NCBI GenBank assembly: GCA_964648335.1
Contig: CAZYLZ010000001.1
Location: forward strand, 93,449 to 157,448
From: an uncultured Candidatus Saccharibacteria bacterium
Lineage (GTDB): Bacteria; Patescibacteriota; Minisyncoccia; Phycocordibacterales; UBA2100
Reading direction: 5' to 3'
DNA: 64,000 nucleotides
Within the stretch, counting starts at the first letter, position 1. Each line of letters starts with the position of its first letter. The position numbers and the translations under genes were made by a program. The notes under the pieces were generated by a model, which had not been told where the DNA came from, ran no database searches, and worked only from the letters and a program-made list of their open reading frames with translations. Below, in pieces: positions 31,756-64,000 of this stretch.

Positions 31756-34700
31756 ACCCTCACGTGCGATTTTTCGCGCCCTCTTGCGGTGGCAGGATCT
31801 TTTTGCCGTACTCGCACTATCTTCGACGCTCCTCTCGCCGGTACTCGTCCTCCCGCTCCCGGCATACGCTGCAGTCGGAGTGCCACGCATCATCAACAAT
31901 CAGGGACGTCTCATGGATGCTAACGGTAGCCTCCTTGGCGGTGCGGGTACCGATTACTGTTTCAAATTCTCGCTGTTCGATGACGCTTCCGTGGGTTCCG
32001 GTTCGCAAGTCTGGCCGTCGGTCGCTCCGTCGATCATGACAGTTCCTGTGAAGCAAGGTATCTACTCGGTCGGTGTCGGAGACACGGATCAGGGTGGCGA
32101 CGTGCTCGACTACAATTTCCAGGACAACGACGCTGTGTACTTGAATGTCGAGGTTGCTGCAAAGGTTGGTGCTACGTGTGCTGTCGGCGATGGTGCTGAG
32201 ACATTCGAGAACCTCTCGCCACGTCAGCGTATTTTCGCATCCGGCTATGCCGTTAATGCCGCGACGGTCGGAGGCTTTACACCGGCGCAGCAGGCTACGG
32301 GAAATCAGATCCCGGTTTTGAGCGCCGGAAATCTCATCCTCGCTGCATCTAACCCGTTCATCAATGCGACCTCGACGAACGCACTTACCCTGCAGGGAGG
32401 TGGCAGCGTATCAGGAGACATTCGGTTTTTCAATGCCGGCAACAAGCTGACATCGGCTGGCAATCTCACACTCACAGGTTCGGTTACCGCATCGGGTCTT
32501 TCGAGCTTTACGAATCTGTTGATCGGCGGCCTCTCGACTACGACCATCCAGGGTACGACCTCCGGCACGTCGACCATCCAAGGATTCTTGAATGTACTTG
32601 GGACCAACTCGACGTCTACGTTCTCCGGATCTATCGCAACTCCGTTTCTTAACCTGACGGGAGCAGGTGCTACCTCGACTGCAGCGAGCGGCTTCGATAT
32701 CGCCGCAGGCTGTTTCTCGATTGGCGGCGTCTGTGTTGGCGGGGTCAACTCAATCACGGCCAATGCGGACAACACACTTGTCGTTGACCCGACAGGCGGT
32801 AATGCCATTGTCGGACTCAATCTTTCTAACGCAAATATCTGGACTGGTTTGCAGCAATTTGCAAACGCGTCGTCGAGCATCTTTTCTGCAGGAAAGGCAT
32901 TCTTCGGAGCGACGGCAACCACCACTATCGATTCGGCCGGCAACGTCGACGTCGCGGGTACACTTGATGTTTCTGGCAACACCACGCTCGCCAAGGCGAC
33001 GTCGACATCGTTTGCGATAACGTCGGTAACCAACACGCTGTTGAAGACGGATGCCAACGGTTCGGTCGTTCCTGCGGTTCCAGGATCCGACTATCTTGTC
33101 TCGGCGGTTACATCACTCGGTGCTGCCGGACAAGCACAGACCGGAGCGACGCAGACCTTTGCAACATCCACGACCGTGACAAACGGCTTGACCGCTGCTA
33201 TCACAATCACTTCAAGTGGGAATGTGCATACGTTCACGCCGTCGGTAACGGGTACTCTCTCGGCGCTCGGCGGAGGTACCGGAATCGCTAATCCTTCGGC
33301 TGGGGGAATCCTCATCGGCTCGTACGTGGGCGGTGCGTACCAGCAGATTGCGACGTCGTCCTTGGGTATCCGTACCACCGATGTCCAGGAGGGATCTAAC
33401 CTGTACTACCAGGACGCAAGAGTTAATTCGTTCATCGATGCATCGACGACGATTCCGAAGACATTTTCTGCGAACGTCTTCTCGGGCCTCACTACGCTCA
33501 ATGGAGGTCTTACGGTTGGTTCATTGAACGGTCCCTTGCAGGCAAACAACGGCGTCGTGTCAGCTACCTCATCCATTGGTGTGGCATACGGAGGTACGGG
33601 AGTCTCTACTGCGCCGGCGTACGGACAGCTGCTTGTTGGCAACGCAGCATCAGGATATTCGCTCGTTGCGACATCGACCCTCGCTATCGCACTCACTGAC
33701 ACGACTGGGACGCTTGCAGTGAATCGCGGCGGCACCGGCATCACTTCACCGACAGCAGGTGCTATCGTACTTGGTGATTACTCGGGTACCGGGTACATGC
33801 AGATCGCGACATCGTCCTTGGGTCTGCTCACCACGAACGTCGCCGAAGGCTCGAATCTGTATTATCAGAACGCCCGCGTGCTCACGTACCTCGACTCGTT
33901 CGACAAAGGTTATTTCTATTCGACGACCTCGGCTGATTTCTGGAAATCACAGAATGATTTCTATTCGACGACCTCCGCCGACTACTGGAAGTCCCAGAGT
34001 AACTTCTTCTCTACTTCGTCCGTTGACTTCTGGAAGTCGCAGACCAACTTCTACTCCACGACCTCGGCGGATTATTGGAAGTCACAGAACAGCTTCTTTT
34101 CGACGACCTCATCAGACTACTTCCTCTCGCAAAACCGGGGTAGCGCGTTCTCGACGACCTCGGCCACGTACTTTGCCGATGCGTCCTCGACTATTGCCAA
34201 GACCTACTCGAACAATACGTTCACCGGAGTGAACGTATTCAATGGCGATACGACGCTCACGAACGCAACGACTGCATCATTGGCTGTAACAGGCGTGACA
34301 TCTTCTCTTCTTAAGACGAACGCAGATGGTTCTGTCGTGCCAGCGGTTGCCGGTGTCGACTACGCGGCTGCAAATGCATCGACATTCGGCAAGACCTTCG
34401 AGATCGACGCATCAGGCTACCTCGCTCCGACCACCTCGGTCACCGTGCGCCTTCCATCGGGATTCGTGTCGCAGGCATCGTCGACGGTTGATGGAAATCT
34501 CACGGTGACGGGGAATCTCACGGCAGGGAATGCCACTGTAACTCATGCGACTTCGACTTCATTCTTTGCTTCCGTTGCATCTTCAACAAACGCCTTCTTT
34601 ACCCGATTCGTCACTGGTAACGCCACGGCCACTGGTGCATTCGCTGCAGCAAATCTCGCTGTGACGGGTTCTACCACGCTTCAGAATGTCACCGCACAGA

Positions 34701-37700
34701 ATGCGACGACCACTAACGCCACTTCGACGTCGTTCTTTGCGGGCGTCTTGGCAGCGACCTCCGGCACTATTGCCAACATCTTTGGCACCAACGCCACCAT
34801 CACCGCAGCAACTACGACAAACCTTTTCGCGACCACCGCATCGACGACTAATCTCTTCGCCTCGAACCTCACTTTCGCCGGGGGGCAGGGAACGACAAGT
34901 GCCCTTGCCATCACCGGCATCACAAATGGCCTCTTGGGCACCAATGCAAACGGATCAATCAGCGCGACGTCCTTCTCGGGGCCGCTCTCGTTCTTCGGCA
35001 ACACCCTCACCATCACCCAGGCTAATGGCGCTACGAGCGGCTTCCTCGCATCTTCCGACTGGAACGTGTTCAACGACAAGGTGTCATCTACTTCCTTGGA
35101 TACCTCGGCAAAACTTGCCGCGCTCATCACCGACGAGACAGGATCCGGCTCTCTTGTCTTCGGCACTGCACCATCAATCACTGACGGGCGCTTCGCTTCG
35201 ACCACCTTATCTGGAAATGTGCTCATCACCGGCAATGCGACAGGTACGAATGCAACCACCACCACCTTTTATTCCACAACTGCATCAAGTACGAATTTGT
35301 TCACCTCGAATCTCTCCATCGGAAACCTAAATGGCCTTCTCAAGTCGACGAATGGACTGGTTGCCACCGCTATTGCGGGTACCGACTACATATCGAGCGT
35401 CTTCAAGGATTGGAATGTTGTAAACGGCGTTCTCGTACCTACTACCACGATCGGCGTTATCGTATCTGCGTCTTCGACGTTCGCCGGGGGCATCACAACA
35501 AGCAATGCTACGGCGACAAACGCTACGACAACCTCTTTGTTCGCATCTATCGCGTCTTCAACGAGTGCTTTTGCAACTAAGCTCTTTATCGGAAACGGAA
35601 CTTCTACCGGCGTATTTGCATCGAACGGTCTCATTGTCTCGGGATCGACAACGCTCCAAGATTTTGCAGGAGCCAACGCTACAATGACGAATGCGACATC
35701 CTCGTCGTTTTTCTCTTCAATCCTTTATGCCTTCAACGGCAGAATTGGCGATCTCATAGCTTCTACCAGTGCGACGCTAGCATCTACCACCGCCTACGGA
35801 CGGTTTATTACTGGAACTGTGGTCGCGACTTCATCTACCGGCACGTCGACTTTCTCTGGAGCAGTTGGAGTGGGTACTACAAACCCTTCGTATAAGGTTT
35901 CGATAGTTGGGTCTACGACGGCTGCAACATCGGCTACCGGTACCGCAGTCCTCTCCGTCACGAACACCAACAACACCTTGAGCTCGGGAACGAACGTCTT
36001 GCGTCTCAACATCCGCACGCCGTTCGGGACGGCATGCACTTCGGGCACGACATGCCCCCGCTTCATCGAGTATGTCTCGGGTATGGCAAATGGATCAGAT
36101 ACCGGAGGAGCGGGTGTCGGAAGCTTACGCCTCTCTACTGCTGGCACCGGTATCACGCAAACATCGGGCGCCGCAGACTTCGCTGAGTACATGCAGCTCA
36201 ATTCGTCGGCCGATGTCGGAGACCTTGTTTCGCTCAACTCGAGCGGACAGTACCAGAAGGCGGTAGCTGGTCAGTCGCTCATCGGCGTTATCTCTGACAA
36301 TCCGGCATTCGTTGGCAATGCAAACCTCGAAGGTCAGCCAAACGCATACGTCGTTGGGTTTGCCGGCGTCATCCAGACCACCGTGAGCGCAGAGAACGGT
36401 TCTATTAACGCCGGAGACCTCATCGCTGCGACGACGACTCCAGGCTTGGGTGTAAAACTTACTAAGTCGGGATACGCGCTGGGCCAGGCGCTCGAGTCGT
36501 ACTCGGGCCCGGGTAACGGAACCATCAAGGTCCTCGTGATGCCGAAGTACGTCGATGCGGCGATCGTACTCGATAGCTACGGCGGAACGACTGGCGGGAC
36601 ATCGGGCTACTGGAGCCTTGCAACATCGACCGGGGAAGTGAGCCTCGCCTCGAGTACGTATTCGCTCCTAATCTCAGGAAAACTCTCTGCTGCCAACGCA
36701 TCCACCACGAACATCTCATCGACCTATGCGTCTTCGACCCGCGCATTCGTCGGTGCGCTCTCGGTCGGTAACTTGAATGGAGTCTTAAAGGCCACTGGCG
36801 GTCTCGTATCGACGGCGCTCGTCAATCTTACGAGCGAAGTGACGGGCACCTTGCCGGTGTTAAACGGAGGTACCAATATATCGACCCCGACTGCAGCAGG
36901 TGTACTGGTAGGCAACTACGCTGGAGACGGCTATATGCAGGTAGCGACATCGTCTTTGGGATTGACGACGACGAATATCACCGAAGGCACAAACCTCTAC
37001 TACCAGAACGCACGCGTGCTCTCGTACCTCAACACCCTCGACAAGGGCTACTTCTTTGCTAGTACCTCTGCCGATTATTGGAAGACTCAGAACAACTTCT
37101 TCTCGACTACGTCTGTCGATGCCTGGAAACTGGTCAATAACTTCTTCTCGACGACTTCGACCGACTACTGGAAAACCCAGAACAATTTCTTCTCTACGAC
37201 CTCGGCCATGTACTTTGCCGACGCATCATCGACTATCGCCAAGACCTACTCGAACAACACCTTCACCGGAGCGAATGTGTTCAATGGCGATACTACCTTG
37301 GGTAAGGCAACATCATCGTCATTCGCTGTCACCGGCATCAGCTCTGCGCTCGTCAAAGCCAATGCCAATGGTTCGTTCGTGCCGGCGATCCCGGGAGTTG
37401 ATTATGCTGCGGCGAACGCATCGACCTTCGGGCAGACATTCGAGATTGGAGCCGACGGGTTCCTGGCCCCGACGTCGTCCATTGTTGTTCGACTCCCGAA
37501 TGGATTCGTCTCGCAGGCATCGTCGACGGTCGATGGAAATCTCACTGTCACGGGATCGCTTGCTGCTGGAAACGCGACCATGACTAACGCGACGACAACG
37601 AGCCTTTTTGCATCCGTCGCATCTTCGACCAACGCCTTCTTCACCCGCCTCATCACTGGCAACGCCACCTCGACCGGCCAGTTCGCTGCAGCCAACCTCT

Positions 37701-40700
37701 CGGTAAGCGGCTCCACGACGCTCCAGAACGTTTCGGCAGTGAACGCAACCACGACGAATGCGACCACCACCGGCAGCGCCTACATCGCGAATCTCTCGCT
37801 CGGCTCGGCACTCACCGCTTCAAACGGCGGTACTGGCATCTCGGCTCCTGCAGCAGCTGGCATCCTCCTGGGCAACTACGCAGGCGGCGGCTACCAGCAG
37901 CTCGCAACATCCTCGCTCGGCCTCTCTACTACCGACATCACCGAAGGCACAAACCTCTACTACCAGAACGCCCGTGTCTTGACCTACCTCGACACGTTCA
38001 ACAAGGGCTACTTCTACTCAACAACGTCAACTGACTACTGGAAGACCCAAAACAATTTCTTCTCAACCACCTCGGCAGATGCCTGGAAGCTCGTGAGTAA
38101 CTTCTTCTCTACCACCTCCTCACAGTACTTCTTGTCGCAGAACCAGGGAGCCGCGTTCTCGACCACGTCGGCCATGTACTTTGCCGACGCATCATCGACT
38201 ATCGCCAAGACCTACTCGAACAACACCTTCACCGGAGCGAATGTGTTCAATGGCAACACGACCTTGGGCAAGGCGACCACCACATCCTTTGCCATCACCT
38301 CGGTGCCTGCCGCCATCCTCAAGACCGATGCAAACGGCTCCGTCATCCCGGCGATCGCCGGCGTCGACTACCTCACGGGCAGCCTCTACGGCAAGTCATT
38401 CGAGATCGACGCATCGGGCTACCTCGCACCGACCACCTCGGTCACGGTGCGTCTCCCGAGCGGCTTTGTCTCCCAAGCATCGTCGACGGTCGATGGAAAT
38501 CTCACCGTGACCGGTAACGTGACTGCCGCAAACGCCACTGTAACTAATGCGACCTCGACATCGTTGTTCGCCTCGATTGCTTCGTCGACGAGCGCTTTTG
38601 CCACGCGTTTGTTCGTCGGGAATGCGACGGCGACTGGGGTGTTTGCAGCCAACGGCCTCATCGTATCCGGCTCGACGACGTTGCAGAATTTTTCGGGTAA
38701 CAATGCGACCACTACGAACCTGTATGCCGTAACGGCATCTACGACAAATCTCTTCGTATCGAACGGCACTATCGTTCGCTCGACTACCACAAACGCGACA
38801 ACAACGACCAGTTTCGCAACTACTGCTTCGTCGACTAATCTTTTCGCTTCGAACTTCTCACTTGGCAACCTCACGGGAATACTCAAGGCAACTGCGGGTA
38901 CGGTGTCGACCGCGCTCGTGAATCTGGCGACCGATGTCACGGGCATCTTGCAGGTGGCAAACGGAGGCACCGGCTGGGCAGCGGTGCAGGCGGGATCGCT
39001 CTTGTATGGAAATGGATCGGGTAGCTTGGCTACTACGACACAGGGCAGCGCAGGCCAGATGCTCGCGTTCTTGAACGGCGTGCCGACGTGGGTCGCGACG
39101 ACCACGTTCTCGAACGGCCTTACCTATGCCAATGGAAATGTCACGCTCTCTTCGCAAGTCGCGCTCACTAACGCGTCTTCTACTGCGGTATCTGCCAATG
39201 ACTATCTTTCGGTTGGTCGAACAGCGACGACCACAATCCGTGGCGAAACGAACGCAACATCTACCTTTGCTGGTGGTATCCAGGCAACCGCACTCAACCT
39301 TACGGGTGCTGCGACATCTTCTGCCTCGGGTGGATTCAATCTCACAGCCGGGTGTTTTGCAGTGAACGGGACCTGTCTCGGAAACGCGCAACCAGGAACT
39401 AATGTTGTATTGACTGCGGTGCGCAATTACACGACAACGCAACAGTGGACGGTCCCGTCAAACCTCGTGTATGCAGTGGTCGAAGTGTGGGGTGGTGGTG
39501 GAGGAGGAGGAGACGGAGACGGTACCGGAGACGGTACCGGCGGCGGCGGCGCAGGCGGTTATGCATCAAAGACGTACACGGCGACCACGTTGGTCGGAAC
39601 TACTTCGATCCAGGCGCTTGTTGGTGCCGGCGGTGCAACGACAACGAGCGCGACCGGCAGTACTGGCGGTACCTCAAACTTCGGTGGATACGCCACCTCG
39701 ACTGGCGGTGCAGGCGGCGTCCGTGCAAATGGTGGCGAAGGCGCGGGAGGAGCCGGCGGGGTCGGCTCTGGAGGCGATATTAACCTGGCAGGAGAACCGG
39801 GTGGTCTGGGCGATACGACGATGGCAAACCAACAAGGTAACGGTGGTTCCGCGCCTCGCGGCGGTAACGGCGGCCTTGGAGGAAATCAGACCACGGGTAA
39901 TGGCGCAGTGGGTGGTACCTGCGGTGGCGGTGGCGGTGGCGCCGGTGGTGCGGCAGGAGGCGGCGGTACTGGTTGCATAGTCATCTATGAATACACGGCC
40001 ACTAACGTTGCACTCGGAAACGGCAGCGTAAATTCCGGATCGACCGGTCAGGTTGCTTACTATAACGCTGCTGGGCAGGCGGTCACGGGCTCGTCGATAC
40101 TATATATAGACAGTGTAAACGGTCGCGTGGGAGTCGGTTCGACCACTCCGGCCGCCGCCTTGGGTGTCTCGGGCGACGCATTCATAAACGGACGGGTGAC
40201 AGCGTCGCACCTGACTGCAACAGGTACCTTGTCGGTCACTGGGTCCACGACACTCCAAAACTTTACAGCGGGAAATTCGACCACATCTAATGCAACCTCG
40301 ACCAATACGTTTGCCACGACGGCATCGTCGACAAACCTTTTTACATCAAACTTTACCTTGGGTGGTCTTACCGGGATCCTCAAAGCAACTGCGGGTCTCG
40401 TCTCTGCATCTTTAGTAGACCTCACCACCGACATCACCGGCATCCTCCAGGTAGCAAACGGCGGAACCGGATGGGACAACCTTGTCGCCGGAACACTCCT
40501 TACCGGCAATGGCTCGGGCAAGGTGGCTACCACCACGATCGGATCCTCGCTCCAGATCTCGGGCTCGTCTCTTGGTCTCAATCTCTCGAATCCGAACATC
40601 TGGACCGGTCTCCAGACTTTCACCAACGCGTCGACCACCTTTGTCTCCGTCCTTACTAAGGCGTCGTTCGGATCGACCGCCACCACCACCATCGACTCGG

Positions 40701-43387
40701 CAGGTAACGTGGCGGTGGCGGGGAACTTGAACGTCGCCGGTATCACGCTTCTCGGACAGGCAACTACCACGAACCTTCTGGTAACCGCATCGACTACTTT
40801 GCAGAACTTCACTGGACAGAACTCGACCACGACCAACGCCACTTCGACGACGTTGTTCGCCAACACCGCATCGACCACAAATCTCTTTGCATCCAACGGC
40901 ACTATCACGCGATCGACCACCACGAATGCAACTACCACTTCCTTGTTTGCGAACACGGCGTCTACGACTGATCTCTATTCGTCCAACAGCATCATCACCC
41001 GTGCAACCACGACAAACGCGACTACCACATCGCTCTTCGCGACCGTGGCGTCCTCTACAAATTTATTTGCTTCTAACTTCTCGCTCGGTAATCTTTCGGG
41101 CATCCTCAAAGCGACCGCAGGCGCCGTATCGACGTCGTTGGCAGACCTCACCACCGACATCACCGGCATCCTCCAGGTAGCAAACGGCGGAACCGGATGG
41201 GACAACCTTGTCGCCGGAACACTCCTTACCGGCAATGGCTCGGGCAAGGTGGCTACCACCACGATCGGATCCTCGCTCCAGATCTCGGGCTCGTCTCTTG
41301 GTCTCAATCTCTCGAATCCGAACATCTGGACCGGTCTCCAGACTTTCACCAACGCGTCGACCACCTTTGTCTCCGTCCTTACTAAGGCGTCGTTCGGATC
41401 GACCGCCACCACCACCATCGACTCGGCAGGTAACGTGGCGGTGGCGGGGACACTCGCCGTAACTGGGAACACGACATTGGCTGCGGCAACGACCTCGAAT
41501 TTACTCGTAACCGGATCAACAACTCTCCAAAACTTTACTGCTCGAAACGCGACGACAACGCAGGCCACGACTACGACACTCTATATCTCTTCTGCGCTAC
41601 GAGGGGCAGGGCTCAGTGCCTGTGCAAATGCTACCGATAAGCTTTTGTGGGATACAGCGACAGCGCAGTTTAGCTGTGGAACAGACGCGGGTGCCGGTAC
41701 TGGAATCGCAAACTTGGGTGCTGCAGGACAATTGCAGAACGGCGCATCTCAGACGTTTGCGACCTCGACAGACACCAATATTGGTCTCACGATCACGTCG
41801 CTCGCTAACGTGCATACGTTCACCACCATCTGGAACGGCATATTATCGGTGGCGCGTGGCGGCACTGGTTGGGCCACTATTCAGGCTGGTACCTTGCTCA
41901 CCGGTAACGGAAGCGGCGCGGTGGCGACGACCACTATAGGATCGTCCCTCCAAATCTCGGGATCTACGCTTGCACTCAACCTCACTAATGCGAATGTCTG
42001 GACGGGATTGCAGACCTTTGCAAATGCATCAACAACTTTGTTCGAATCCGTGACGCAATTTGCGCAGACCATACAGTCGACTTCGACAAACGCGCTAGTC
42101 ATCAAATCAAATCTTAGTTCGACTGCCGGCCTTACCTTGGGCGGCACCACCACACCGCAGATACTCGGCATTGATACGCTGAATACCCGCGTCAAGATCG
42201 GTACCGGCGGTGCTACGCCCGTTTTGTTCGTGCTCGACACCAAGAATACGGCAGGAGATCCGACAGGAGTCGATGGTGCGCAGTATTACAACTCGAATAC
42301 GAGCGATTATCGCTGCTTTAGCGGAACGACCTGGAGGAGCTGCGGCGGCTTGGCAGCGAGCTCGACAGGAGACGTGCAGTTCAAGAACGTCGATGGATCG
42401 TTTACCGCGTCTTCGAACTTTAACTGGAGCATGGCCAACAACGGCCTCACTATCACTGCATCATCGTCATCGCAGACGACCGATCTCTTTACTATCGCGT
42501 CGAGTACCGGAGCGCCAATGTTCGCTGTCAGCAGCAAAGGTGTTCTAGAGTTGGCCACGACTACTGACCCGGCGGCGCCTGCTGCGGGACAGCTCAATAT
42601 ATATGCGAAAAATATTGCCGGACGCATCATGCCCAAATGGATCGGCCCAAGCGGAGTCGATACTCCATTTCAGGCGAACCTCGGATTCAATCGCGTTTCT
42701 ATGATGATGCCGGCAGGAGGCACAACTGCGACTACATTCGTCGGCGGATTAGGCTCTACCTTTACCAACGTTGTGACAACCGCAGCAAACCCAACGCCTA
42801 CCACCGCAAGCTTACTGACATCGACACGTCGCGCAACATTCAGCACAGGTACGACCCTCAATACCATAACCTCACACCGCCAGAGCACGTTGCAGGTTAC
42901 GCGCGGGAATTCTTCGAATATCGGCGGCTTCTTCTATACGATACGATTTGGCACTTCGGTAACTCCGGCAGGTAATCGCGTGTTCGTCGGTCTTTCGGAT
43001 TCGGTGGCAGCACCTGCCAACCTCGATCCTTTGGTCACCGGCACTGGAATAGGTCGTGTGGGCATGGCAATTAATGCCAACACAGGCAACTGGAGTTTTG
43101 TGCACAACGTGTCCGGTACTGCGCCGACAGTCTATAACCTTGGTGCTAGTTTTCCCGTTGATAACACCAGTCTCTATGAGCTTATTCTTTTCTCTAAACC
43201 AAATGACACTGTCATAAGTTATCGCGTGAAGAACCTTGCGACGGGTGCAGAGTTAGCCAGTACGACGCTTTCAACCAACATTCCGGCCAATACAACTTAT
43301 TTAGCACCACAGTTCTGGATGGTAAACGTAGCTGCTGCCATCGCCACCTTCGATTTCGGTGGCTGGTACCTCGAGAGCGACCAATAA
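31739..43387 (+). CDS. giant secreted repeat protein (3882 aa): signal peptide, many nested tandem modules, a glycine-rich low-complexity segment, and a C-terminal jelly-roll-like domain
   Basis: Uninterrupted ORF; signal peptide ..LPLPAYAAVGV. Repeated GA(I/V)(L/V)LG.Y.G.GY(M/Q)Q(I/L)ATSSLGL.TT(N/D)(V/I).EG(S/T)NLYYQNARV(L)(T/S)YLD four times; STTS(A/T)DYWK(S/T)QNNFF about 10 times; VANGGTGW..L.AG(T/S)LL(T/Y)GNGSG..ATTT four times. Confidence 0.9.
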   Translation: MHRASKPSRAIFRALLRWQDLFAVLALSSTLLSPVLVLPLPAYAAVGVPRIINNQGRLMDANGSLLGGAGTDYCFKFSLFDDASVGSGSQVWPSVAPSIMTVPVKQGIYSVGVGDTDQGGDVLDYNFQDNDAVYLNVEVAAKVGATCAVGDGAETFENLSPRQRIFASGYAVNAATVGGFTPAQQATGNQIPVLSAGNLILAASNPFINATSTNALTLQGGGSVSGDIRFFNAGNKLTSAGNLTLTGSVTASGLSSFTNLLIGGLSTTTIQGTTSGTSTIQGFLNVLGTNSTSTFSGSIATPFLNLTGAGATSTAASGFDIAAGCFSIGGVCVGGVNSITANADNTLVVDPTGGNAIVGLNLSNANIWTGLQQFANASSSIFSAGKAFFGATATTTIDSAGNVDVAGTLDVSGNTTLAKATSTSFAITSVTNTLLKTDANGSVVPAVPGSDYLVSAVTSLGAAGQAQTGATQTFATSTTVTNGLTAAITITSSGNVHTFTPSVTGTLSALGGGTGIANPSAGGILIGSYVGGAYQQIATSSLGIRTTDVQEGSNLYYQDARVNSFIDASTTIPKTFSANVFSGLTTLNGGLTVGSLNGPLQANNGVVSATSSIGVAYGGTGVSTAPAYGQLLVGNAASGYSLVATSTLAIALTDTTGTLAVNRGGTGITSPTAGAIVLGDYSGTGYMQIATSSLGLLTTNVAEGSNLYYQNARVLTYLDSFDKGYFYSTTSADFWKSQNDFYSTTSADYWKSQSNFFSTSSVDFWKSQTNFYSTTSADYWKSQNSFFSTTSSDYFLSQNRGSAFSTTSATYFADASSTIAKTYSNNTFTGVNVFNGDTTLTNATTASLAVTGVTSSLLKTNADGSVVPAVAGVDYAAANASTFGKTFEIDASGYLAPTTSVTVRLPSGFVSQASSTVDGNLTVTGNLTAGNATVTHATSTSFFASVASSTNAFFTRFVTGNATATGAFAAANLAVTGSTTLQNVTAQNATTTNATSTSFFAGVLAATSGTIANIFGTNATITAATTTNLFATTASTTNLFASNLTFAGGQGTTSALAITGITNGLLGTNANGSISATSFSGPLSFFGNTLTITQANGATSGFLASSDWNVFNDKVSSTSLDTSAKLAALITDETGSGSLVFGTAPSITDGRFASTTLSGNVLITGNATGTNATTTTFYSTTASSTNLFTSNLSIGNLNGLLKSTNGLVATAIAGTDYISSVFKDWNVVNGVLVPTTTIGVIVSASSTFAGGITTSNATATNATTTSLFASIASSTSAFATKLFIGNGTSTGVFASNGLIVSGSTTLQDFAGANATMTNATSSSFFSSILYAFNGRIGDLIASTSATLASTTAYGRFITGTVVATSSTGTSTFSGAVGVGTTNPSYKVSIVGSTTAATSATGTAVLSVTNTNNTLSSGTNVLRLNIRTPFGTACTSGTTCPRFIEYVSGMANGSDTGGAGVGSLRLSTAGTGITQTSGAADFAEYMQLNSSADVGDLVSLNSSGQYQKAVAGQSLIGVISDNPAFVGNANLEGQPNAYVVGFAGVIQTTVSAENGSINAGDLIAATTTPGLGVKLTKSGYALGQALESYSGPGNGTIKVLVMPKYVDAAIVLDSYGGTTGGTSGYWSLATSTGEVSLASSTYSLLISGKLSAANASTTNISSTYASSTRAFVGALSVGNLNGVLKATGGLVSTALVNLTSEVTGTLPVLNGGTNISTPTAAGVLVGNYAGDGYMQVATSSLGLTTTNITEGTNLYYQNARVLSYLNTLDKGYFFASTSADYWKTQNNFFSTTSVDAWKLVNNFFSTTSTDYWKTQNNFFSTTSAMYFADASSTIAKTYSNNTFTGANVFNGDTTLGKATSSSFAVTGISSALVKANANGSFVPAIPGVDYAAANASTFGQTFEIGADGFLAPTSSIVVRLPNGFVSQASSTVDGNLTVTGSLAAGNATMTNATTTSLFASVASSTNAFFTRLITGNATSTGQFAAANLSVSGSTTLQNVSAVNATTTNATTTGSAYIANLSLGSALTASNGGTGISAPAAAGILLGNYAGGGYQQLATSSLGLSTTDITEGTNLYYQNARVLTYLDTFNKGYFYSTTSTDYWKTQNNFFSTTSADAWKLVSNFFSTTSSQYFLSQNQGAAFSTTSAMYFADASSTIAKTYSNNTFTGANVFNGNTTLGKATTTSFAITSVPAAILKTDANGSVIPAIAGVDYLTGSLYGKSFEIDASGYLAPTTSVTVRLPSGFVSQASSTVDGNLTVTGNVTAANATVTNATSTSLFASIASSTSAFATRLFVGNATATGVFAANGLIVSGSTTLQNFSGNNATTTNLYAVTASTTNLFVSNGTIVRSTTTNATTTTSFATTASSTNLFASNFSLGNLTGILKATAGTVSTALVNLATDVTGILQVANGGTGWAAVQAGSLLYGNGSGSLATTTQGSAGQMLAFLNGVPTWVATTTFSNGLTYANGNVTLSSQVALTNASSTAVSANDYLSVGRTATTTIRGETNATSTFAGGIQATALNLTGAATSSASGGFNLTAGCFAVNGTCLGNAQPGTNVVLTAVRNYTTTQQWTVPSNLVYAVVEVWGGGGGGGDGDGTGDGTGGGGAGGYASKTYTATTLVGTTSIQALVGAGGATTTSATGSTGGTSNFGGYATSTGGAGGVRANGGEGAGGAGGVGSGGDINLAGEPGGLGDTTMANQQGNGGSAPRGGNGGLGGNQTTGNGAVGGTCGGGGGGAGGAAGGGGTGCIVIYEYTATNVALGNGSVNSGSTGQVAYYNAAGQAVTGSSILYIDSVNGRVGVGSTTPAAALGVSGDAFINGRVTASHLTATGTLSVTGSTTLQNFTAGNSTTSNATSTNTFATTASSTNLFTSNFTLGGLTGILKATAGLVSASLVDLTTDITGILQVANGGTGWDNLVAGTLLTGNGSGKVATTTIGSSLQISGSSLGLNLSNPNIWTGLQTFTNASTTFVSVLTKASFGSTATTTIDSAGNVAVAGNLNVAGITLLGQATTTNLLVTASTTLQNFTGQNSTTTNATSTTLFANTASTTNLFASNGTITRSTTTNATTTSLFANTASTTDLYSSNSIITRATTTNATTTSLFATVASSTNLFASNFSLGNLSGILKATAGAVSTSLADLTTDITGILQVANGGTGWDNLVAGTLLTGNGSGKVATTTIGSSLQISGSSLGLNLSNPNIWTGLQTFTNASTTFVSVLTKASFGSTATTTIDSAGNVAVAGTLAVTGNTTLAAATTSNLLVTGSTTLQNFTARNATTTQATTTTLYISSALRGAGLSACANATDKLLWDTATAQFSCGTDAGAGTGIANLGAAGQLQNGASQTFATSTDTNIGLTITSLANVHTFTTIWNGILSVARGGTGWATIQAGTLLTGNGSGAVATTTIGSSLQISGSTLALNLTNANVWTGLQTFANASTTLFESVTQFAQTIQSTSTNALVIKSNLSSTAGLTLGGTTTPQILGIDTLNTRVKIGTGGATPVLFVLDTKNTAGDPTGVDGAQYYNSNTSDYRCFSGTTWRSCGGLAASSTGDVQFKNVDGSFTASSNFNWSMANNGLTITASSSSQTTDLFTIASSTGAPMFAVSSKGVLELATTTDPAAPAAGQLNIYAKNIAGRIMPKWIGPSGVDTPFQANLGFNRVSMMMPAGGTTATTFVGGLGSTFTNVVTTAANPTPTTASLLTSTRRATFSTGTTLNTITSHRQSTLQVTRGNSSNIGGFFYTIRFGTSVTPAGNRVFVGLSDSVAAPANLDPLVTGTGIGRVGMAINANTGNWSFVHNVSGTAPTVYNLGASFPVDNTSLYELILFSKPNDTVISYRVKNLATGAELASTTLSTNIPANTTYLAPQFWMVNVAAAIATFDFGGWYLESDQ
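39485..39990 (+). repeat. glycine-rich low-complexity coding segment (GGGGGGDGDGTGDGTGGGGAGG ... GGGGGGAGGAAGGGGTGC) within giant gene 2
   Basis: ggtggtggtggaggaggaggagacggagacggtaccggagacggtaccggcggcggcggc and following; G-rich but with no G-X-Y periodicity. Confidence 0.8.
40417..40724 (+). repeat. copy 1 of a 308-nt perfectly identical direct repeat inside giant gene 2 (726-bp period)
   Basis: Base-for-base identical to 41143..41450 on manual comparison; flanks diverge. Confidence 0.9.
41143..41450 (+). repeat. copy 2 of the 308-nt perfectly identical direct repeat
   Basis: Identical to 40417..40724; encodes DLTTDITGILQVANGGTGWDNLVAGTLLTGNGSGKVATTTIGSSLQISGSSLGLNLSNPNIWTGLQTFTNASTTFVSVLTKASFGSTATTTIDSAGNVAVAG in both copies. 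Confidence 0.9.
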
Positions 43388-57855: not shown

Positions 57856-57888
57856 ACCGCCGATTCTGATGAATCGGCGGTATTTTTA
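57856..57888 (+). terminator. rho-independent terminator
   Basis: accgccgattc-tgat-gaatcggcggt perfect 11-bp stem followed by ATTTTTAAT. Confidence 0.8.
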
Positions 57889-58106
57889 ATCGTCGTAACC
57901 ACCACCTGGAGCCCCATCCGTATCTTTTCTCGGGCTTCGCCCTCTTCGCAGCGGCATTCTCGTGGTGCGGCTTTTATGCGATGATGGGGAAGAGTACATG
58001 CCCGGTGAGCTAATAGTTTAGTTCTAGCGAGTGAGGGTCGTTAAAACGGTACCTGAAACCATTACTCCCATGAAAGGGATAGTGACAATAAACCAAAAAG
58101 TATAAT

Positions 58107-60035
58107 TTAAAGAGGAGTATTTGTCTGAGCCGCCGGAGTGTGAGGGGCCATTTCCGCAATGAAACGAGTCGACTGCAAATACGCAGTTCCGCCTACTGTT
58201 TGAGATGGTGTAATTTGGCTGCCGTACGCCTCAACGGCGGGCATGGTACGCGCATGTGTGAGTGCCAAGTAGCCAACCCTACCAGCCGGCGGATCGGCTT
58301 TGACTCGAGTGATACCCACATAAAACAAGCGTCGGTCCTCTTCAAGCTTTGCTGCCTGTTCATCGTTGGTTAAATCGGGATTGGCCGTTGCAGGAAAGAG
58401 ACCCTCAACGCATCCGACGATGAACACAAACGGTGCGCTCAACCCCTTACTTTTATGCAAACTCATGATTCTCACTTCTGAGACAGCCGATGGCACCTCT
58501 GGATGGGTAATAGCTTCGTACAAGGCCTCATAAAGTTCTTGAGGCGTTTCCAGACTTTCTTTGGTTTGAGCGACCGCTTCACCGAGAAGCGCGGTCTGCG
58601 GGTTTTCGGGCAGCCATTGAGAAATGAATTGACCTAGGTCGGCCGCGGCCCGCAGAGAATCTATTTCTGTTTTAATTACATTGAACCGGGTCACGAGCGC
58701 TCCGGCATACGGAATGTTAAGAGTGCCTGTCGCCATGGCACTTAGAGCCTGCCATGGCGACGTGTGATTTGCCCTTACATGATTCATAAGCCGTCGATAC
58801 GCATTCGTCCTCCAGTCCGTCGCTCCGTAGCCAAGCAGCCAACGCAAAGCAATTCTATCCTCATTGTCCAATAGCAGCTTCAGGCTCGCGAAGCGTTCCT
58901 GTGCCGCGAGCGTGTCGAGGCTCGACTCAGCGTAATAAGACTTCGTAGGGATATTTAGACCTCTTAAATGATTGAAGATGGGCGTTGCAAACGCTTCACG
59001 TTGCGTGAGTACGATGATATCACTAGGTGCGACACCGCTCGCTACCAACGCCGATATTTTTTCGGCAACTGCCTCCGTTTCTTCTGTGGCGCTTCTATAT
59101 TGTCGTATCACAACTTCACCAGCGCCATTTTCTGCCCTCTCTGTCATGAGACGACCCGCAATTCGATCAGTATTGCGCGCAATGAGAGCATTCGCCATTC
59201 GCACGACAGTGGTCGGACATCTTCGACACTCTTCGATCGCATGGTCGTCCGCAGTATGTACAGTACTCCAATCACGAATACCTCCGGGATGCGCGTGCTT
59301 GAAGCTATAAATAGATTGATCGTCGTCGCCAATAACGCAGAGCGAGCCATTCTCGCCAAGAAAATGCAGAGCGTCCTGCTCGGCACGGTTCAGGTCTTGG
59401 TATTCATCCACCAGTAGGTGGCTAAATTCGTTTCTTTCCGGAGCGTCGGGATTATCTCGCAAGTACTGGTAAAGATGCGGTATTAACTCATCGACGAGCA
59501 TCGCTTTATGAAAACGAAGCCAGGTTACCAGGTCGTCCACAAACGACTGCTCGGCCGGAGAGCGAGTGTACCCGGGTTCTTGAGTTTGCAAACGCGCCCA
59601 CGCCGCAGCATACGCTTTTATGAGACGTTTGCGTTCGCGTTTATTGCCATGCGTAATACTTAAATCTGCCAACAGTGGCTCCATCTCGTATTTGTTGAGT
59701 GGTCTCGGTACGCGGCCCAACGCAGTGAGGACATGGTTACGCATGAGTATAGACATCGCCAGGCTATGGAGCGTCTTCGCTTTCAAGCGATCGGCACCAG
59801 CCACCCCTAGAGATAGAAGTTCACGCTGGATATCTTCAGCAGCAACTCGAGTGAAGGTTACGGCTAAAACACGTGCAGGATTGATACCCTCAACCTCAAG
59901 TATGCGCGCGACGCGACGCTTCATTGCGAAGGATTTGCCAGTACCGGGGCCAGCCAAGACTCGAATGCGCCTGTGAGTTGACCCTGCAATGCTATGCGCT
60001 GATGTTCCTGTGTTTAAGCCGTCGTCCCACGCCAT
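58107..60035 (-). CDS. UvrD/Rep-family superfamily 1 DNA helicase
   Basis: Motif I LAGPGTGKSF, motif II LLVDEYQDLN, motif III VIGDDDQSIY, motif V SLHKSKGL, motif VI YVGITR. Confidence 0.9.
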   Translation of the reverse strand: MAWDDGLNTGTSAHSIAGSTHRRIRVLAGPGTGKSFAMKRRVARILEVEGINPARVLAVTFTRVAAEDIQRELLSLGVAGADRLKAKTLHSLAMSILMRNHVLTALGRVPRPLNKYEMEPLLADLSITHGNKRERKRLIKAYAAAWARLQTQEPGYTRSPAEQSFVDDLVTWLRFHKAMLVDELIPHLYQYLRDNPDAPERNEFSHLLVDEYQDLNRAEQDALHFLGENGSLCVIGDDDQSIYSFKHAHPGGIRDWSTVHTADDHAIEECRRCPTTVVRMANALIARNTDRIAGRLMTERAENGAGEVVIRQYRSATEETEAVAEKISALVASGVAPSDIIVLTQREAFATPIFNHLRGLNIPTKSYYAESSLDTLAAQERFASLKLLLDNEDRIALRWLLGYGATDWRTNAYRRLMNHVRANHTSPWQALSAMATGTLNIPYAGALVTRFNVIKTEIDSLRAAADLGQFISQWLPENPQTALLGEAVAQTKESLETPQELYEALYEAITHPEVPSAVSEVRIMSLHKSKGLSAPFVFIVGCVEGLFPATANPDLTNDEQAAKLEEDRRLFYVGITRVKADPPAGRVGYLALTHARTMPAVEAYGSQITPSQTVGGTAYLQSTRFIAEMAPHTPAAQTNTPL

Positions 60036-60121
60036 AGTCTTTCACATTACTACTACTCAGCAGTATAGCCAACCTAGCCACATACAGCCTATCGTGAGGG
60101 GGGTAGACCCGTGCACACTCC

Positions 60122-61009
60122 TTACCCCGGTTTTGTACGTAGCTGACTAGTCACGTCGTCAGTTCTGTCACTACCAATCAGTGGTAACCCCCTCAGTGAA
60201 TCGAAGTTCTTTTGTAGTCGCGGCTCGCTTAACTTATGCCATTTCATTAAGAGCCAGCCCCGCCACAAGTAGATTTTGCTACGGATGGGATCGTTGAACG
60301 AGTGGTGTTCTAGGGAAAGGTCGAAATAAGTCTCTACGACATATGCGTACGCCACTTCGCGCCGAAACAGCCCAATGGCTTGATGCAGAGATTTGAGACA
60401 GTCTTTCCTAACCTTCCGTAAATGCGTGCGAGACTTCTTGGTCATAATGAATAGGTCATCCATACCGAGCCATCGAGAAAGCCGGAGGTTGCCGCTGCGG
60501 GCACGCCATGGACGACCCGGCACAAAGTAATGCAGCTTTAACTGTAAATAATACTGACCGTAGATTTCGCCCGCTGTGCGGTGGCAGTAGGCCACAGCGC
60601 CCACGTACGGTTTCTTGTTGATGAGCTTGTAACCCATATCAATGATGGCCTGTGTATTGCGCCATGTTGTCTGGAGCTTTGTATCAAGTTCCTTGTGCCG
60701 CTTCATCTCTGTCTCAAGACCAAATTCAAACCAGTCGATAGCCATCGTTATGTTCTTCATTTCCCCGATGTGCATCCCGGCTTCCGCAATCTCCGCCTTA
60801 GCTCGCATGAGACAAAACTGCGCAGCCATCTCAGGTCGGCCTGCTTTATCCGCAATAACTGCTCCGACTTCTGTCGCATGTCGAATCTCTGCTCCGTGAC
60901 GCAGCGAGTTAAGTCCAGAAATAAGTTCGTTCATGGCGTTAACCTTCTCATCCGGTGACATGCCGGAATCAGTGATGCTTTTTACGGTGTTTTTGAAGTT
61001 ATCGTCCAT
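60122..61009 (-). CDS. hypothetical protein; the longest ORF extends to 61075 and would overlap the upstream gene by 77 nt, so an internal start (MDDNFKN at 61009) is more likely
   Basis: ORF between the DUF4238-like gene and the helicase on the same strand; no recognisable motif. Confidence 0.5.
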   Translation of the reverse strand: MDDNFKNTVKSITDSGMSPDEKVNAMNELISGLNSLRHGAEIRHATEVGAVIADKAGRPEMAAQFCLMRAKAEIAEAGMHIGEMKNITMAIDWFEFGLETEMKRHKELDTKLQTTWRNTQAIIDMGYKLINKKPYVGAVAYCHRTAGEIYGQYYLQLKLHYFVPGRPWRARSGNLRLSRWLGMDDLFIMTKKSRTHLRKVRKDCLKSLHQAIGLFRREVAYAYVVETYFDLSLEHHSFNDPIRSKIYLWRGWLLMKWHKLSEPRLQKNFDSLRGLPLIGSDRTDDVTSQLRTKPG

Positions 61010-61964
61010 ACATTTTTCGATATCGCCACCAGTCGCGGAGCTTATACGCAAAAATCCGGGTCTCGTTTTTGACAATTTTCCATAGGAAAAGTGGGTCGAG
61101 GGGCACTCGACTAAACCATATCCATTTTTTCTCCGGATGCGGCGAAATGAACTCTTTGGTTGCGTGAGAACGCGTCATGCGATTGAGCATGCTCTCGACA
61201 TTGCCATTGCTCACGTATGAGTACCCGCGAAAGTTGGCCCACGTAAACATAACGGTAATTTCCGGACTAAGAGCGAGTGTCAACTGCACATTTTGCTGCC
61301 CAAAGCCAGGGCCGTAGAACCTCTGCCACTGCAGATCGGGGTTGAAAAAAACGCACGGGTCATCGGAGGTAATGAACCAATGTTTGTTTGGGTCTTTAAT
61401 GCACAGGAACGCTACGCTCATCTGCATTAGGATGTTGGCGATATACGGAATACTATCCACCATTTGGATTTTGTGCGCGTCTTTTTTGTATTCGATCCAT
61501 TGACGCACCTGCGGTGAGTCGTCGACGCCGCGCGTGCGCGCCATCTGTGTGCCGTGGTCGATGAGTTGCTGGATGAAGTTCTCCTGATTTTGCTTAAATC
61601 GCGGAGTGCGCACCATCTGCGCCGCAACGAACGCACAGAGATAGGCATGCTCCATTTCAGTAAGCGGCTTTTTTTGCTTGATCTTGTGTCTAAAGACGTA
61701 CGCATATTTTGATTCGATAGTGGAGAGGCTTCGCTCGATAGTGAAGTCTTTCTCTCCATTGAACTCGAACGTGTAGAGATGCGTTTCGGTAAAAATGTTT
61801 TTAGGTGCTCGCTTGTGAGAGTTTTTGCCGTCCTTATCGAATACCCACAAGTACGGCTCTTGGCCAGCCGGGGTACTAGGGTCGGTGAATTCCGACAAGT
61901 AGCAACGCGGCACAAAGTGCTGATCGCGCGGGCCTTTATTTTTCTTTTTGTTCTTCCTAGCCAC
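60999..61964 (-). CDS. DUF4238-like protein
   Basis: N-terminal QHFVPRCYLSEF matches the HxVPxxYLxxF opening motif recalled for DUF4238; not verified by search. Confidence 0.5.
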   Translation of the reverse strand: MARKNKKKNKGPRDQHFVPRCYLSEFTDPSTPAGQEPYLWVFDKDGKNSHKRAPKNIFTETHLYTFEFNGEKDFTIERSLSTIESKYAYVFRHKIKQKKPLTEMEHAYLCAFVAAQMVRTPRFKQNQENFIQQLIDHGTQMARTRGVDDSPQVRQWIEYKKDAHKIQMVDSIPYIANILMQMSVAFLCIKDPNKHWFITSDDPCVFFNPDLQWQRFYGPGFGQQNVQLTLALSPEITVMFTWANFRGYSYVSNGNVESMLNRMTRSHATKEFISPHPEKKWIWFSRVPLDPLFLWKIVKNETRIFAYKLRDWWRYRKMYGR

Positions 61965-62262
61965 GAGGTGATTATAGTGCTCGAGAGGCTATTAATTCAA
62001 CATCAGGCCACTACAGCGCTCTAAGAGGTATGCTTTCGCACACCTCCGGTGCTCTTTTTTTGGCGGTGCATTCGGGTTAAGTGCCCGTGCCTACCAATCA
62101 TTGTAAGGGTTTTTGAGGAACTTTAACACTAGCGGATTTGAGGCATGTGGGTCGGTCTCAATAGACACGATAGACACTATAAAAAGGATTGAGAAAGTGT
62201 CTTGTGTGACCGTGGAGGTATTTACACCTTTGACCACCTAGATACTTTTCTATATATGCAGA

Positions 62263-62643
62263 TTAAAAAGGAATATCTCTCTCCTCTTCGTCACTCACCT
62301 CAACCTCGACATCAGTAAGCTCTTCATTTTTAACATCGGCAGAGTATTTTACAATCGCGTCTTTATATAAACTATCAACTTCGGTTTTGAATTGACTTTT
62401 ATCACTCAAAAATTGAGTGAATTTTGAATGTATGTTCTCGTAAATTACTTGATGAGCCTTATTGCCCACAAGACTTTCGTCGTAAGCGTCCAACTCAAAA
62501 TCTTCTGTTTCTGCCGCATTTAATAACGCGAGTAGACCATCTTTGTTGATTTTATCTATCTCTTGGTACGTATTTCCGTCCCAGTAAAAACCCTTATTGT
62601 TTTCAATCTTTAAGTATTTCATATCATTTCTTAAAACTTTCAT
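62263..62643 (-). CDS. small acidic hypothetical protein, 20-nt overlap with the upstream ATPase gene; low-GC
   Basis: 126 aa, C-terminal VEVEVSDEEERDIPF; about 40% GC against about 60% elsewhere in the window. Confidence 0.55.
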   Translation of the reverse strand: MKVLRNDMKYLKIENNKGFYWDGNTYQEIDKINKDGLLALLNAAETEDFELDAYDESLVGNKAHQVIYENIHSKFTQFLSDKSQFKTEVDSLYKDAIVKYSADVKNEELTDVEVEVSDEEERDIPF

Positions 62644-64000
62644 ATAGACCCTTTCTGGTTTTGTAGGCCTCTTGACCGGCCTCCAATGTATCCAATAGAG
62701 TATCGTAACTACCTATCGATTCACTACCGTCTGCTGTTTTGAATTCTTTATCTCCTGGCGACCCAGAAAAAACTCTGTATTCGTCTTTTCCATTAATAAT
62801 TTGTCTTTGCGTGTATAACACATAATCAGGCTCCATAAGCATACCTACCGTATTGTTATGCGTTACAACAATGACTGGCATTTCTTTTGAAATGTCCTTT
62901 ATTTCCTTATTGACGTTTTTCTTTAGAAATAAGTTGTCAAAAGAAGATTCTGGCTCATCTACTAACAACATGTCGTATTGACGCGCATCCTGCAAAACTC
63001 TAAGTAAATTAAATTCAGCCATCTCTCCACCAGATACCTTTTTATCGTACTCGTTCAATACCTGATAAGTAACTTTACAAAAGTATCTATACAATTCACT
63101 TTTCTCAAGACCTTCCATATTTTTTAACTCTTCAAGGAAAAGAATGGGAGAGGCATACTTACTGAATGCAGCGGTAAAAGACACCTGCTTCCCAGATTCA
63201 TCGTGCAGACCTTGTGCCCCTGTGTATGGACTAGCAACTGCTCGGATTTTGAATTTGCCAAATACTTCTGTCTCTCTAATCTCAGATTCCTGTTTTATCG
63301 CATTCGCAATAGCATTAAATCTTCTCGTGCGCTCTCGCTCTAACTTTACTTGGTAAAAATCTATATCGCCATCATCAATTTTGGGACTGGAAGTCTTGTT
63401 CTCAAGTTGTTTTCTTGTTTCACTGACCAACTCATTTATCCACTCTTTCTTTAGGCGTACCTCCAATATTTGTTTATATTGTTTTGTTAGATCATCAAAT
63501 AGATTTTGTAGCTCCTCAGATGTAACATATTTATTGACTGTGTTTTTGTATGTGACACTTTTTAATATCAACCAGACCGCCTTGAGTAAGCGTTCTAATT
63601 CTTTCTCTTGATTGTGCCTGATCTGGTATTTGGTTTCTTTAAATAGAACTGCTCTAGAAAATTCATCTTGGAGTTTCTCGCTTGATGCATAATCTAACAA
63701 TGTCTCAATATATTTTCCTAATTTGTGACTAGTTGCTCTTCGATCTATTTCGATTATATCGTCCACGACGCTACGAAACTCTTTTAGATACTCTTCTCGG
63801 ACTGCACTTTTGTCCTTCTCCACACGCTTATTGAATTTCTTCTCGTCGTCTCTTATCAAATCAAACTGCTCAATATATTTAATAGATTTTTCCTCGGTAT
63901 CAAAAATATCCCTCAATTTATTCAAAAGATACGTTTTACCAGAAGACCTGCCACCAACAATAATGTTCAGGCCACTTGATAATACTTGACCATTATTGAA
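62624..64000 (-). CDS. ABC-like AAA_21/OLD-family-type ATPase (5' partial; the N-terminus continues beyond the window end)
   Basis: Manual translation of the reverse complement of 64000..63926 is in frame and open: FNNGQVLSSGLNIIVGGRSSGKTYLLNKLR, i.e. Walker A GGRSSGKT at 63932-63955. Downstream: signature-like SGGEMAEF, Walker B MLLVDEPESSFD (about 62950-62980) and VIVVTHN; the TTG at 63925 in the ORF track is internal. Confidence 0.8.
   Translation of the reverse strand, partial: FNNGQVLSSGLNIIVGGRSSGKTYLLNKLRDIFDTEEKSIKYIEQFDLIRDDEKKFNKRVEKDKSAVREEYLKEFRSVVDDIIEIDRRATSHKLGKYIETLLDYASSEKLQDEFSRAVLFKETKYQIRHNQEKELERLLKAVWLILKSVTYKNTVNKYVTSEELQNLFDDLTKQYKQILEVRLKKEWINELVSETRKQLENKTSSPKIDDGDIDFYQVKLERERTRRFNAIANAIKQESEIRETEVFGKFKIRAVASPYTGAQGLHDESGKQVSFTAAFSKYASPILFLEELKNMEGLEKSELYRYFCKVTYQVLNEYDKKVSGGEMAEFNLLRVLQDARQYDMLLVDEPESSFDNLFLKKNVNKEIKDISKEMPVIVVTHNNTVGMLMEPDYVLYTQRQIINGKDEYRVFSGSPGDKEFKTADGSESIGSYDTLLDTLEAGQEAYKTRKGLYESFKK

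Follow-up and report, generated by a model that had tools for sequence, protein, structure and literature searches.

A coupled DUF4238 gene pair and a separate UvrD-like helicase in a defence-type island of an uncultured Candidatus Saccharibacteria bacterium

We analysed a stretch of 64,000 nucleotides (nt) of DNA from an uncultured Candidatus Saccharibacteria bacterium (hereafter, the window), and in particular three minus-strand genes at positions 58107-61964, which encode, in order of transcription, a DUF4238 protein, a partner protein of 295 amino acids (aa) and a UvrD-like helicase. We consider it likely that these genes are two independently mobile modules that were joined recently, one consisting of the DUF4238 gene and its partner and the other of the helicase, within a small defence-type island that also contains the candidate system PDC-M49, and that the gene pair is probably anti-phage. 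An initial annotation of this DNA had placed three co-directional genes here and read them as a candidate defence module, possibly of a Gabija-like kind. All three genes are present and intact, and because each aligns full-length to homologues, none is a chance open reading frame (ORF). Their grouping into one unit did not survive comparison with related loci. The genes and the spacer between the two modules are as follows:

60999-61964, minus strand: DUF4238 gene; 321 aa, GTG start, lysine-rich N terminus, PF14022
60122-61009, minus strand: partner gene; 295 aa from its ATG, predicted to be all-helical (TPR/14-3-3-like), no family match
60036-60121, minus strand: spacer of 86 nt between the pair and the helicase gene, the junction of the two modules
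58107-60035, minus strand: helicase gene; 642 aa, superfamily 1A (SF1A) UvrD-like, without a nuclease domain

The DUF4238 gene and its partner

The DUF4238 protein matched PF14022 over residues 15-270 (2.9e-35, 122.5 bits against a cut-off of 27), as did 42 of 42 aligned relatives, and its lysine-rich N terminus is common to close homologues. The partner had been described as lacking any recognisable motif, and indeed it matched nothing in Pfam, NCBIfam, PADLOC or PHROG; none of 31 members of its family carried a Pfam family. This family is rare, with 33 homologues among 5.8 billion proteins. A HMMER profile search returned 101 cluster representatives among 1.84 billion, nearly all of them about 300 aa long.

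The two genes were found together throughout. A DUF4238 gene lies directly upstream of the partner gene in all eight partner-encoding GTDB genomes, five of which are labelled as Patescibacteria or Paceibacterota metagenome-assembled genomes (MAGs) and three simply as "bacterium", and directly 5′ of it in every locus that we found (numbered L001-L015, L104, L105-107, L108, L112-116 and L119), so that the adjacency holds in about 14 of 14 independent lineages examined. It extends to distant pairs in which the DUF4238 proteins are 46-47% identical and the partners about 20%, the partner still being found by the family profile in L104 (Terriglobia, E-value 2e-14), L108 (a metagenome contig, 3e-13) and L119 (an IMG/VR contig, 1.5e-19). 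The reading frames overlap in 12 of 13 loci; in the window, the overlap between the DUF4238 stop and the partner ATG is 11 nt. Where one protein diverges between two loci, so does the other (Spearman 0.87 for the identities across 78 pairings of 13 loci, a descriptive figure, as these pairings are not independent), and DUF4238 is the better conserved throughout, for example 87% against 67% relative to L009. Distant DUF4238 genes on plasmids (25-32% identity) have other neighbours or none, and the pair rule therefore defines a subfamily of DUF4238. Together, the DUF4238 gene and the 295-aa gene almost certainly form one obligate, translationally coupled two-gene unit, an operon under purifying selection that is found on mobile DNA beside other defence genes.

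Viral sequences added little: viral contigs held one distant DUF4238 pair and no close member of the partner family, and GenBank phages gave no match to the DUF4238 protein. A literature search found no published description of the partner family, of the pair or of the tRNA-Ser islets described below, all of which are apparently undescribed; PDC-M49 has already been catalogued.

Predicted structures offered some indication of what the two proteins may be. The AlphaFold2 model of the partner (predicted local distance difference test score, pLDDT, 86; predicted template modelling score, pTM, 0.81) consists of 13 helices, and its best Foldseek matches in the PDB were the tetratricopeptide repeat (TPR) domains of LGN and 14-3-3 proteins (E-values of 2e-3 to 3e-2, template modelling (TM) scores of at most 0.45). 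Weak matches to TPR_10 in the L108 partner and to TPR_12 in 3 of 31 family members are consistent with a helical-repeat fold, and a sequence profile search of the PDB returned nothing meaningful. The partner is thus predicted to be a helical-repeat scaffold, without an enzyme-like fold match. The DUF4238 model (pLDDT 86) had neither a fold analogue (best E-value 0.4) nor a sequence relative in the PDB, and lenient Pfam scans of 42 DUF4238 and 31 partner members revealed no added domain. Invariant positions are E77, E84, R119, H164, S200/D201 and N261/R262 in DUF4238, and W93, W116, C142, D184, R194 and E234/S237 of an LEHHSF motif in the partner. In BFVD, the model matched an uncharacterised protein of the P2-like Stenotrophomonas phage Smp131 (E-value 3e-9, TM 0.56-0.60, 10% identity). 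The protein also gave weak matches to phrog_29785 (1.4e-9) and to the PADLOC model DUF4238-Pers (3.3e-11, 41 bits), the best-scoring stretch of the latter covering only residues 169-262.

These matches bear on function in that a single DUF4238 gene from a P2 hotspot, Rst_DUF4238, which is described as a single-protein system, protects E. coli against T7 (Rousset et al. 2022, PMC9122126). The window protein shares PF14022 with this tested system, lies on mobile DNA beside defence genes and has a fold that matches a P2-like phage protein, a match that would tie it structurally to the P2-hotspot gene. It differs from Rst_DUF4238 in three respects: it is remotely related, with only a partial match of 41 bits to DUF4238-Pers; its subfamily has a coupled partner of about 295 aa in every relative down to 46% identity; and relatives of the pair occupy tRNA-Ser/serine-recombinase islets of Patescibacteria, whereas the tested type occurs in P2-like prophages. 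On this comparison, we regard the pair as a putative remote two-gene variant of the single-gene system. Known or candidate defence neighbours of the pair are PDC-M49 in the window, a Bub-like ubiquitin module in L104 and a type I restriction-modification (RM) locus in L116. Taking the tested gene, the Smp131 fold match and these neighbours together, we lean slightly towards a defence role for the pair, by analogy.

Two of these distant or decaying loci merit description. In Terriglobia, the pair lies in an island (L104 1-12900) that also encodes a type IV coupling protein, a PD-(D/E)XK protein, a large methyltransferase and an HTH-M78 regulator; the Bub-like module comprises Multi_ubiq, ThiF and BubE domains. 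The islet that adjoins the type I RM locus (L116 786-3940) is decaying: its DUF4238 gene is frameshifted and split into three frames, its recombinase gene has broken in two, and the partner gene remains whole.

Islets at tRNA-Ser and the copy in the window

In Patescibacteria, the pair is usually the sole cargo of an islet of about 3.3 kilobases (kb) at the 3′ end of a tRNA-Ser gene. The tRNA-Ser lies approximately 70-320 nt upstream of the DUF4238 start in L006, L009, L010, L012, L013, L105, L115 and L116; its anticodon varies among loci, and L011 has a tRNA-Gln instead. Most tRNA-bearing islets carry the motif TTTAGTATCGG, or a variant of it, after the tRNA. Directly after the partner gene follows a convergent gene for a large serine recombinase of 440-450 aa with Resolvase, Recombinase and Zn_ribbon_recom domains, at a distance of 0-2 nt or overlapping (L112, L115, L105 and L009-L011). 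Of about 15 related lineages, 12 have the recombinase or a vestige of it. Upstream of its start, the islets share a conserved right end, GGAGTCCAGAGCGTCC..GTTGGTAAC, beyond which the loci diverge. The whole islet thus consists of a tRNA end, two cargo genes and a recombinase, and its layout suggests that these are small integrative elements with tRNA-Ser as their attachment site. They resemble the tRNA-targeting genomic islands and prophages that large serine recombinases mobilise (phiC31/Bxb1-type integrases, ccr of SCCmec), since relatives of the pair and of the helicase are bounded by the 3′ end of a tRNA-Ser on one side and by a convergent recombinase of this class on the other. They differ in being extremely small, with two cargo genes and mobility that is putative.

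Some islets have additional features. Two or three tandem tRNA-Ser genes stand just upstream of the DUF4238 islet in L013 (6508-7009) and L105 (1854-2055), and the copy closest to the islet, with its unusual anticodon ACT, could be a tRNA carried by the element or a hybrid made by integration. In a Patescibacteria MAG (L006 8898-9605), an orphan gene of 235 aa without a PADLOC match lies between the pair and the recombinase, in the position that a helicase occupies in L014.

So compact an arrangement raises the question of whether the pair serves the islet rather than the host, as a toxin-antitoxin-like addiction module or as a directionality factor or regulator for the recombinase. In at least eight loci the pair is the only cargo, with the recombinase as the only other gene, and the tight coupling of two genes is typical of addiction modules. 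Serine-integrase directionality factors, for their part, are large and mutually unrelated. However, the pair is intact where the recombinase is gone or truncated (the window, L012 and L013) or where none was seen nearby (L104), DUF4238 genes are common on plasmids and in P2 hotspots that have no serine recombinase, and the tested DUF4238 gene blocks T7 (PMC9122126). Because the pair persists without the recombinase and DUF4238 is widespread without it, we consider a maintenance function rather unlikely and prefer an anti-phage role for the pair.

The window copy appears to be a fossil of such an islet, one that has kept its leader and lost its tRNA, recombinase and end motifs. Its surroundings comprise the following features:

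61965-62075, minus strand: leader and promoter of the pair, which would be the retained left end of the ancestral islet
62263-62643, minus strand: PDC-M49B, 126 aa; PADLOC PDLC04682 at 1.2e-32
62624-64000, minus strand: PDC-M49A, an ABC/SMC-like ATPase with its C-terminal 459 codons in the window; PADLOC PDLC04680
57856-58106: junction between island and host flank, the spot occupied by a serine recombinase in related loci

The leader (about 110 nt) aligns with the L009 leader that follows tRNA-Ser, and the likeness extends to CACTATAATCAC just before the GTG start; both copies have the arrangement CACTATAATCAC-N4-GTG. A promoter-like TTGAAT-18-TATAAT at 62000-61971, scoring 10/12, ends 7 nt before the GTG. 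The position of TATAAT and the same layout in L009 suggest that the DUF4238 transcript may be leaderless or nearly so. In the window we found neither a tRNA gene nor a relic of one that exceeded shuffled controls, no recombinase homologue (tblastn, E≤1e-2) and neither islet end motif, TTTAGTATCGG being absent within 1 mismatch. Fossil copies occur elsewhere too: L012 and L013 retain only the last 55-57 aa of the recombinase. Flanking the window copy are the helicase on the recombinase side and the PDC-M49 block on the other. The latter (62263-64000) occupies precisely the place of the tRNA-Ser in related islets, a position that points to its later insertion there.

The initial annotation had put the three genes below their surroundings in G+C content, which holds (0.509 overall against 0.555 for the remainder of the window), although its figure in the mid-50s per cent was too high, as the genes measure 0.49-0.52. 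The block beyond 62.2 kb is lower still, at 0.34-0.37 (PDC-M49B, 0.344). On the opposite side, G+C drops from 0.55-0.57 to 0.50 at the 57856-58106 boundary, where the helicase gene abuts the terminator (57856-57881) of a convergent host gene of 189 aa. HtpX of the host flank is 48% identical to that of one related locus, and no near-identical DNA was found among E. coli genomes or plasmids. The proposed reading of this stretch as horizontally acquired, defence-island-like DNA is supported, as relatives of its helicase stand beside recombinases and defence systems.

The helicase as a separate module

The helicase matched PF00580 (6e-39) and PF13361 (3e-27), that is, UvrD-helicase and UvrD_C, and its motifs are intact (Walker A GPGTGKS, DEYQD, GDDDQSIY and VGITR). 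Against the NCBIfam equivalogs for UvrD, PcrA and Rep it scored 155-176 bits, for cut-offs of 911-1168. These scores, together with the variable, mobile contexts of its relatives, led us to reject a housekeeping UvrD, PcrA or Rep identity, as the initial annotation had expected. Its family is large and length-conserved (about 641 aa), and helicases 60-75% identical to it are found in taxa as far apart as Gemmatimonadaceae (Gemmatimonadota), Bradyrhizobium, Mesorhizobium and Patescibacteria, which indicates horizontal spread. Viral contigs contained only two moderately close helicases.

Helicase and pair have come together rarely. Of about 14 lineages with the pair, 2 have the helicase behind it; of more than 80 helicase loci, about 2 have the pair in front. 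Close relatives of the pair lack the helicase: L112 (DUF4238 83% and partner 76% identical to those of the window), L115 (84% and 66%) and L009 (87% and 67%). Likewise, close relatives of the helicase lack the pair, including L117, the closest distinct one (75%), in which a recombinase is present, and L016, L020 and L024 (about 70%). Apart from the window, only L014, from a Nomurabacteria MAG, has the helicase behind the pair, with a recombinase after it; there the helicase is 69% identical to that of the window, while the pair is, within the close family, the one least like the window's (DUF4238 56%, partner 38%). The histories of helicase and pair are therefore incongruent, indicating that the two came to lie side by side recently and on more than one occasion. 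L025 supplies the complementary case, in which a tRNA-Ser/TTTAGTATCGG end is followed by the helicase and a convergent recombinase, with no pair; as the helicase is the sole cargo there, each module is self-sufficient as cargo. From these observations, the helicase is a mobile module separate from the DUF4238 pair.

A reading of the three genes as one defence system, possibly with the nearby ATPase as in Gabija, draws on their arrangement: they run in one direction, spaced at -11 and 86 nt, without an intervening terminator (neither a terminator nor a strong promoter consensus was found in the spacer at 60036-60121), and the same order recurs in L014. The initial annotation had itself proposed co-occurrence as the check on this grouping, and what co-occurs elsewhere is only the DUF4238 and 295-aa genes: about 12 of 14 lineages with the pair have no helicase, and hardly any of the more than 80 helicase loci have the pair. 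Nor do the phylogenies agree (69% for the L014 helicase against 56% and 38% for its pair), and shared inheritance fails in both directions, since the nearest relatives of each module lack the other.

The best PADLOC matches of the helicase, GajB models (to 3e-47), also favour a three-gene system, with the ATPase as a further member. RTasHel and NERD+UvrD models match the helicase as well, and all of these are generic similarity within superfamily 1 (SF1). Its nearest solved structures are UvrD and PcrA (about 1e-38), and no GajB chain was among its solved-structure matches at E≤1e-10; by sequence, then, it is nearer to solved UvrD and PcrA than to any GajB chain. Gabija consists of GajA, an OLD-type ATPase-TOPRIM nuclease, and GajB, a UvrD-like helicase, and the window resembles it in having an SF1 UvrD-like helicase with an ATPase gene nearby. 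GajA, however, is missing: the ATPase gave no GajA match in PADLOC at E≤0.1 and, as had been noticed earlier, has no TOPRIM domain in Pfam. It matched PDC-M49A instead (3.5e-137, profile positions 250-673 of 674), with an ORF that is intact and open to the window edge, a Walker A motif (GGRSSGKT) at 63.9 kb and a continuation of 551 aa in the metagenome contig L022. The PDC-M49A and PDC-M49B genes are adjacent in the expected order with a 20-nt overlap, so that both genes of this PADLOC two-gene phage-defence candidate are matched, in a block distinct from the three genes (G+C 0.35 against 0.51). Because the ATPase already has its own partner, PDC-M49B, a Gabija-like pairing of helicase and ATPase is not supported. 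A Gabija identity was rejected on the lack of GajA, on this partner and on distance, as the ATPase is not adjacent: 0.66 kb separate it from the start of the DUF4238 gene, and 2.6 kb and three intervening genes from that of the helicase gene, rather than the 1.7 kb that had been given. We therefore regard a single system of three genes as very improbable and largely refuted by co-occurrence, and retain the reading of two modules.

Around the helicase, neighbouring genes vary. Of 184 neighbouring proteins, 125 were singletons; clustering of neighbours found no conserved partner, and loci with different upstream cargo shared no conserved 5′ leader. In relatives at 50-71% identity, the helicase gene directly follows an SNF2 protein and a large methyltransferase (L016), SIR2 and a short prokaryotic Argonaute (pAgo; L018), a type III cyclic oligonucleotide-based anti-phage signalling system (CBASS; L020), an ABC ATPase (L024), a type IIG restriction endonuclease (L034) or a class II pAgo and its Aga nuclease (L061). 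Homologues 41-44% identical to it sit inside type I RM operons, flanked by hsdS and hsdR in L096 and L097, where the locus is complete, and also occur between HmaA and HmaB; the window helicase differs from these in standing outside any such operon. The helicase thus resides in defence islands and is often found next to serine recombinases. Among helicases of at least 64% identity with a readable downstream region, six of nine are followed by a convergent large serine recombinase, at a gap of -6 to +54 nt (about 1 kb in L020), and these recombinases belong to two subfamilies of approximately 440 and 530 aa that are only 30-38% identical to each other.

Further details of these neighbourhoods were recorded. 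Short or class II pAgo systems (SIR2 with pAgo, or pAgo with an Aga helical restriction endonuclease) adjoin the helicase in three independent lineages (L018 2782-5954, L035/L036 and L061 387-3895), an association that recurs more than that of any neighbour family except recombinases and RM. Helicases embedded between HmaA and HmaB in overlapping frames were seen in L086 (4396-7983), L092 (5119-11195) and L096 and L097 (around 4100-13100), the last two being those that are also flanked by hsdS and hsdR, and the L096 helicase adjoins a PDC-S02 gene.

The link to recombinases admits another explanation, namely that the helicase is a backbone gene of serine-recombinase elements, for example in the replication or processing of an excised circle, and marks the cargo site without being a defence gene. 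The six of nine close helicases that precede a recombinase of one or the other subfamily are in keeping with this, and so is upstream cargo that varies while the helicase stays 65-75% identical. Most pair islets, however, have a recombinase and no helicase, so mobility does not require the helicase. No recombinase was seen with relatives at or below 61% identity, which lie in type I RM or Hma operons or beside pAgo, and the 3.5-kb L025 element has no relaxase or Rep gene. On balance we think a backbone role plausible but less likely, and continue to read the helicase as a stand-alone cargo module.

A tentative model and its implications

In the model that we propose, the first module, the DUF4238 protein and its helical partner, would provide anti-phage defence of an abortive-infection type. 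DUF4238 would be the effector; the TPR/14-3-3-like partner would bind it and either sense a phage product or restrain the effector until infection. The second module would be a stand-alone helicase of the 641-aa class that travels with the recombinase subfamily of the pair islets and with a second one, inserts next to or within a variety of complete defence systems and acts independently of the pair. The assignment of effector and sensor is considerably more speculative than the defence role itself.

Several points weigh against this model. Defence by the DUF4238 subfamily of the window is argued by analogy, and its match to DUF4238-Pers, the model of the tested type, is weak, partial and of 41 bits. 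PDB and Pfam scans found a recognisable catalytic fold or motif in neither DUF4238 nor its partner, and the roles of effector and sensor are guesses. The helicase is very often the gene just before a recombinase, and could serve the mobile element rather than the host. Two distant lineages, those of the window and of L014, combine pair and helicase, which would fit a facultative functional link. Finally, nearly all of the comparative loci are metagenome contigs or MAGs, and neighbouring genes in the metagenomes were called with a simple ORF finder.

Elsewhere in the window, two giant plus-strand ORFs, at 129-18128 (5999 aa) and 31739-43387 (3882 aa), are nearly without Pfam signal: an Ig_Rha78A_N-like domain and DUF2341 are the sole matches in the former, and the latter has none. 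They probably encode huge surface proteins. Many orphan ORFs of 330-630 aa lie around them. These giant ORFs, the wealth of orphan genes and the taxonomy of related loci are indirect pointers to a host among the Patescibacteria.

A bolder proposal, which we put forward tentatively and with some doubt, is that DUF4238 and its helical partner are a new two-component anti-phage system, pairing an effector of unknown fold with a helical sensor, and that nothing else is carried by their self-contained integrative islet, among the smallest known (about 3.3 kb), found mainly in Patescibacteria and exchanged across phyla at protein identities of up to 87%. Bolder still would be to see the helicase as a portable add-on that marks or services a cargo slot beside serine recombinases; if true, this would explain why many different defence systems are found just upstream of it.

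DUF4238 is a validated defence gene that is mechanistically blank, and an obligate partner with confident models of both proteins gives a handle on its action, through complex formation and a candidate sensor. For any UvrD-like helicase found beside defence genes, these loci advise against a Gabija-like reading unless its partners have been checked. The 3.3-kb islets, for their part, offer a simple and tractable picture of how defence genes may move in Patescibacteria, a group whose mobile elements and immunity are poorly known.

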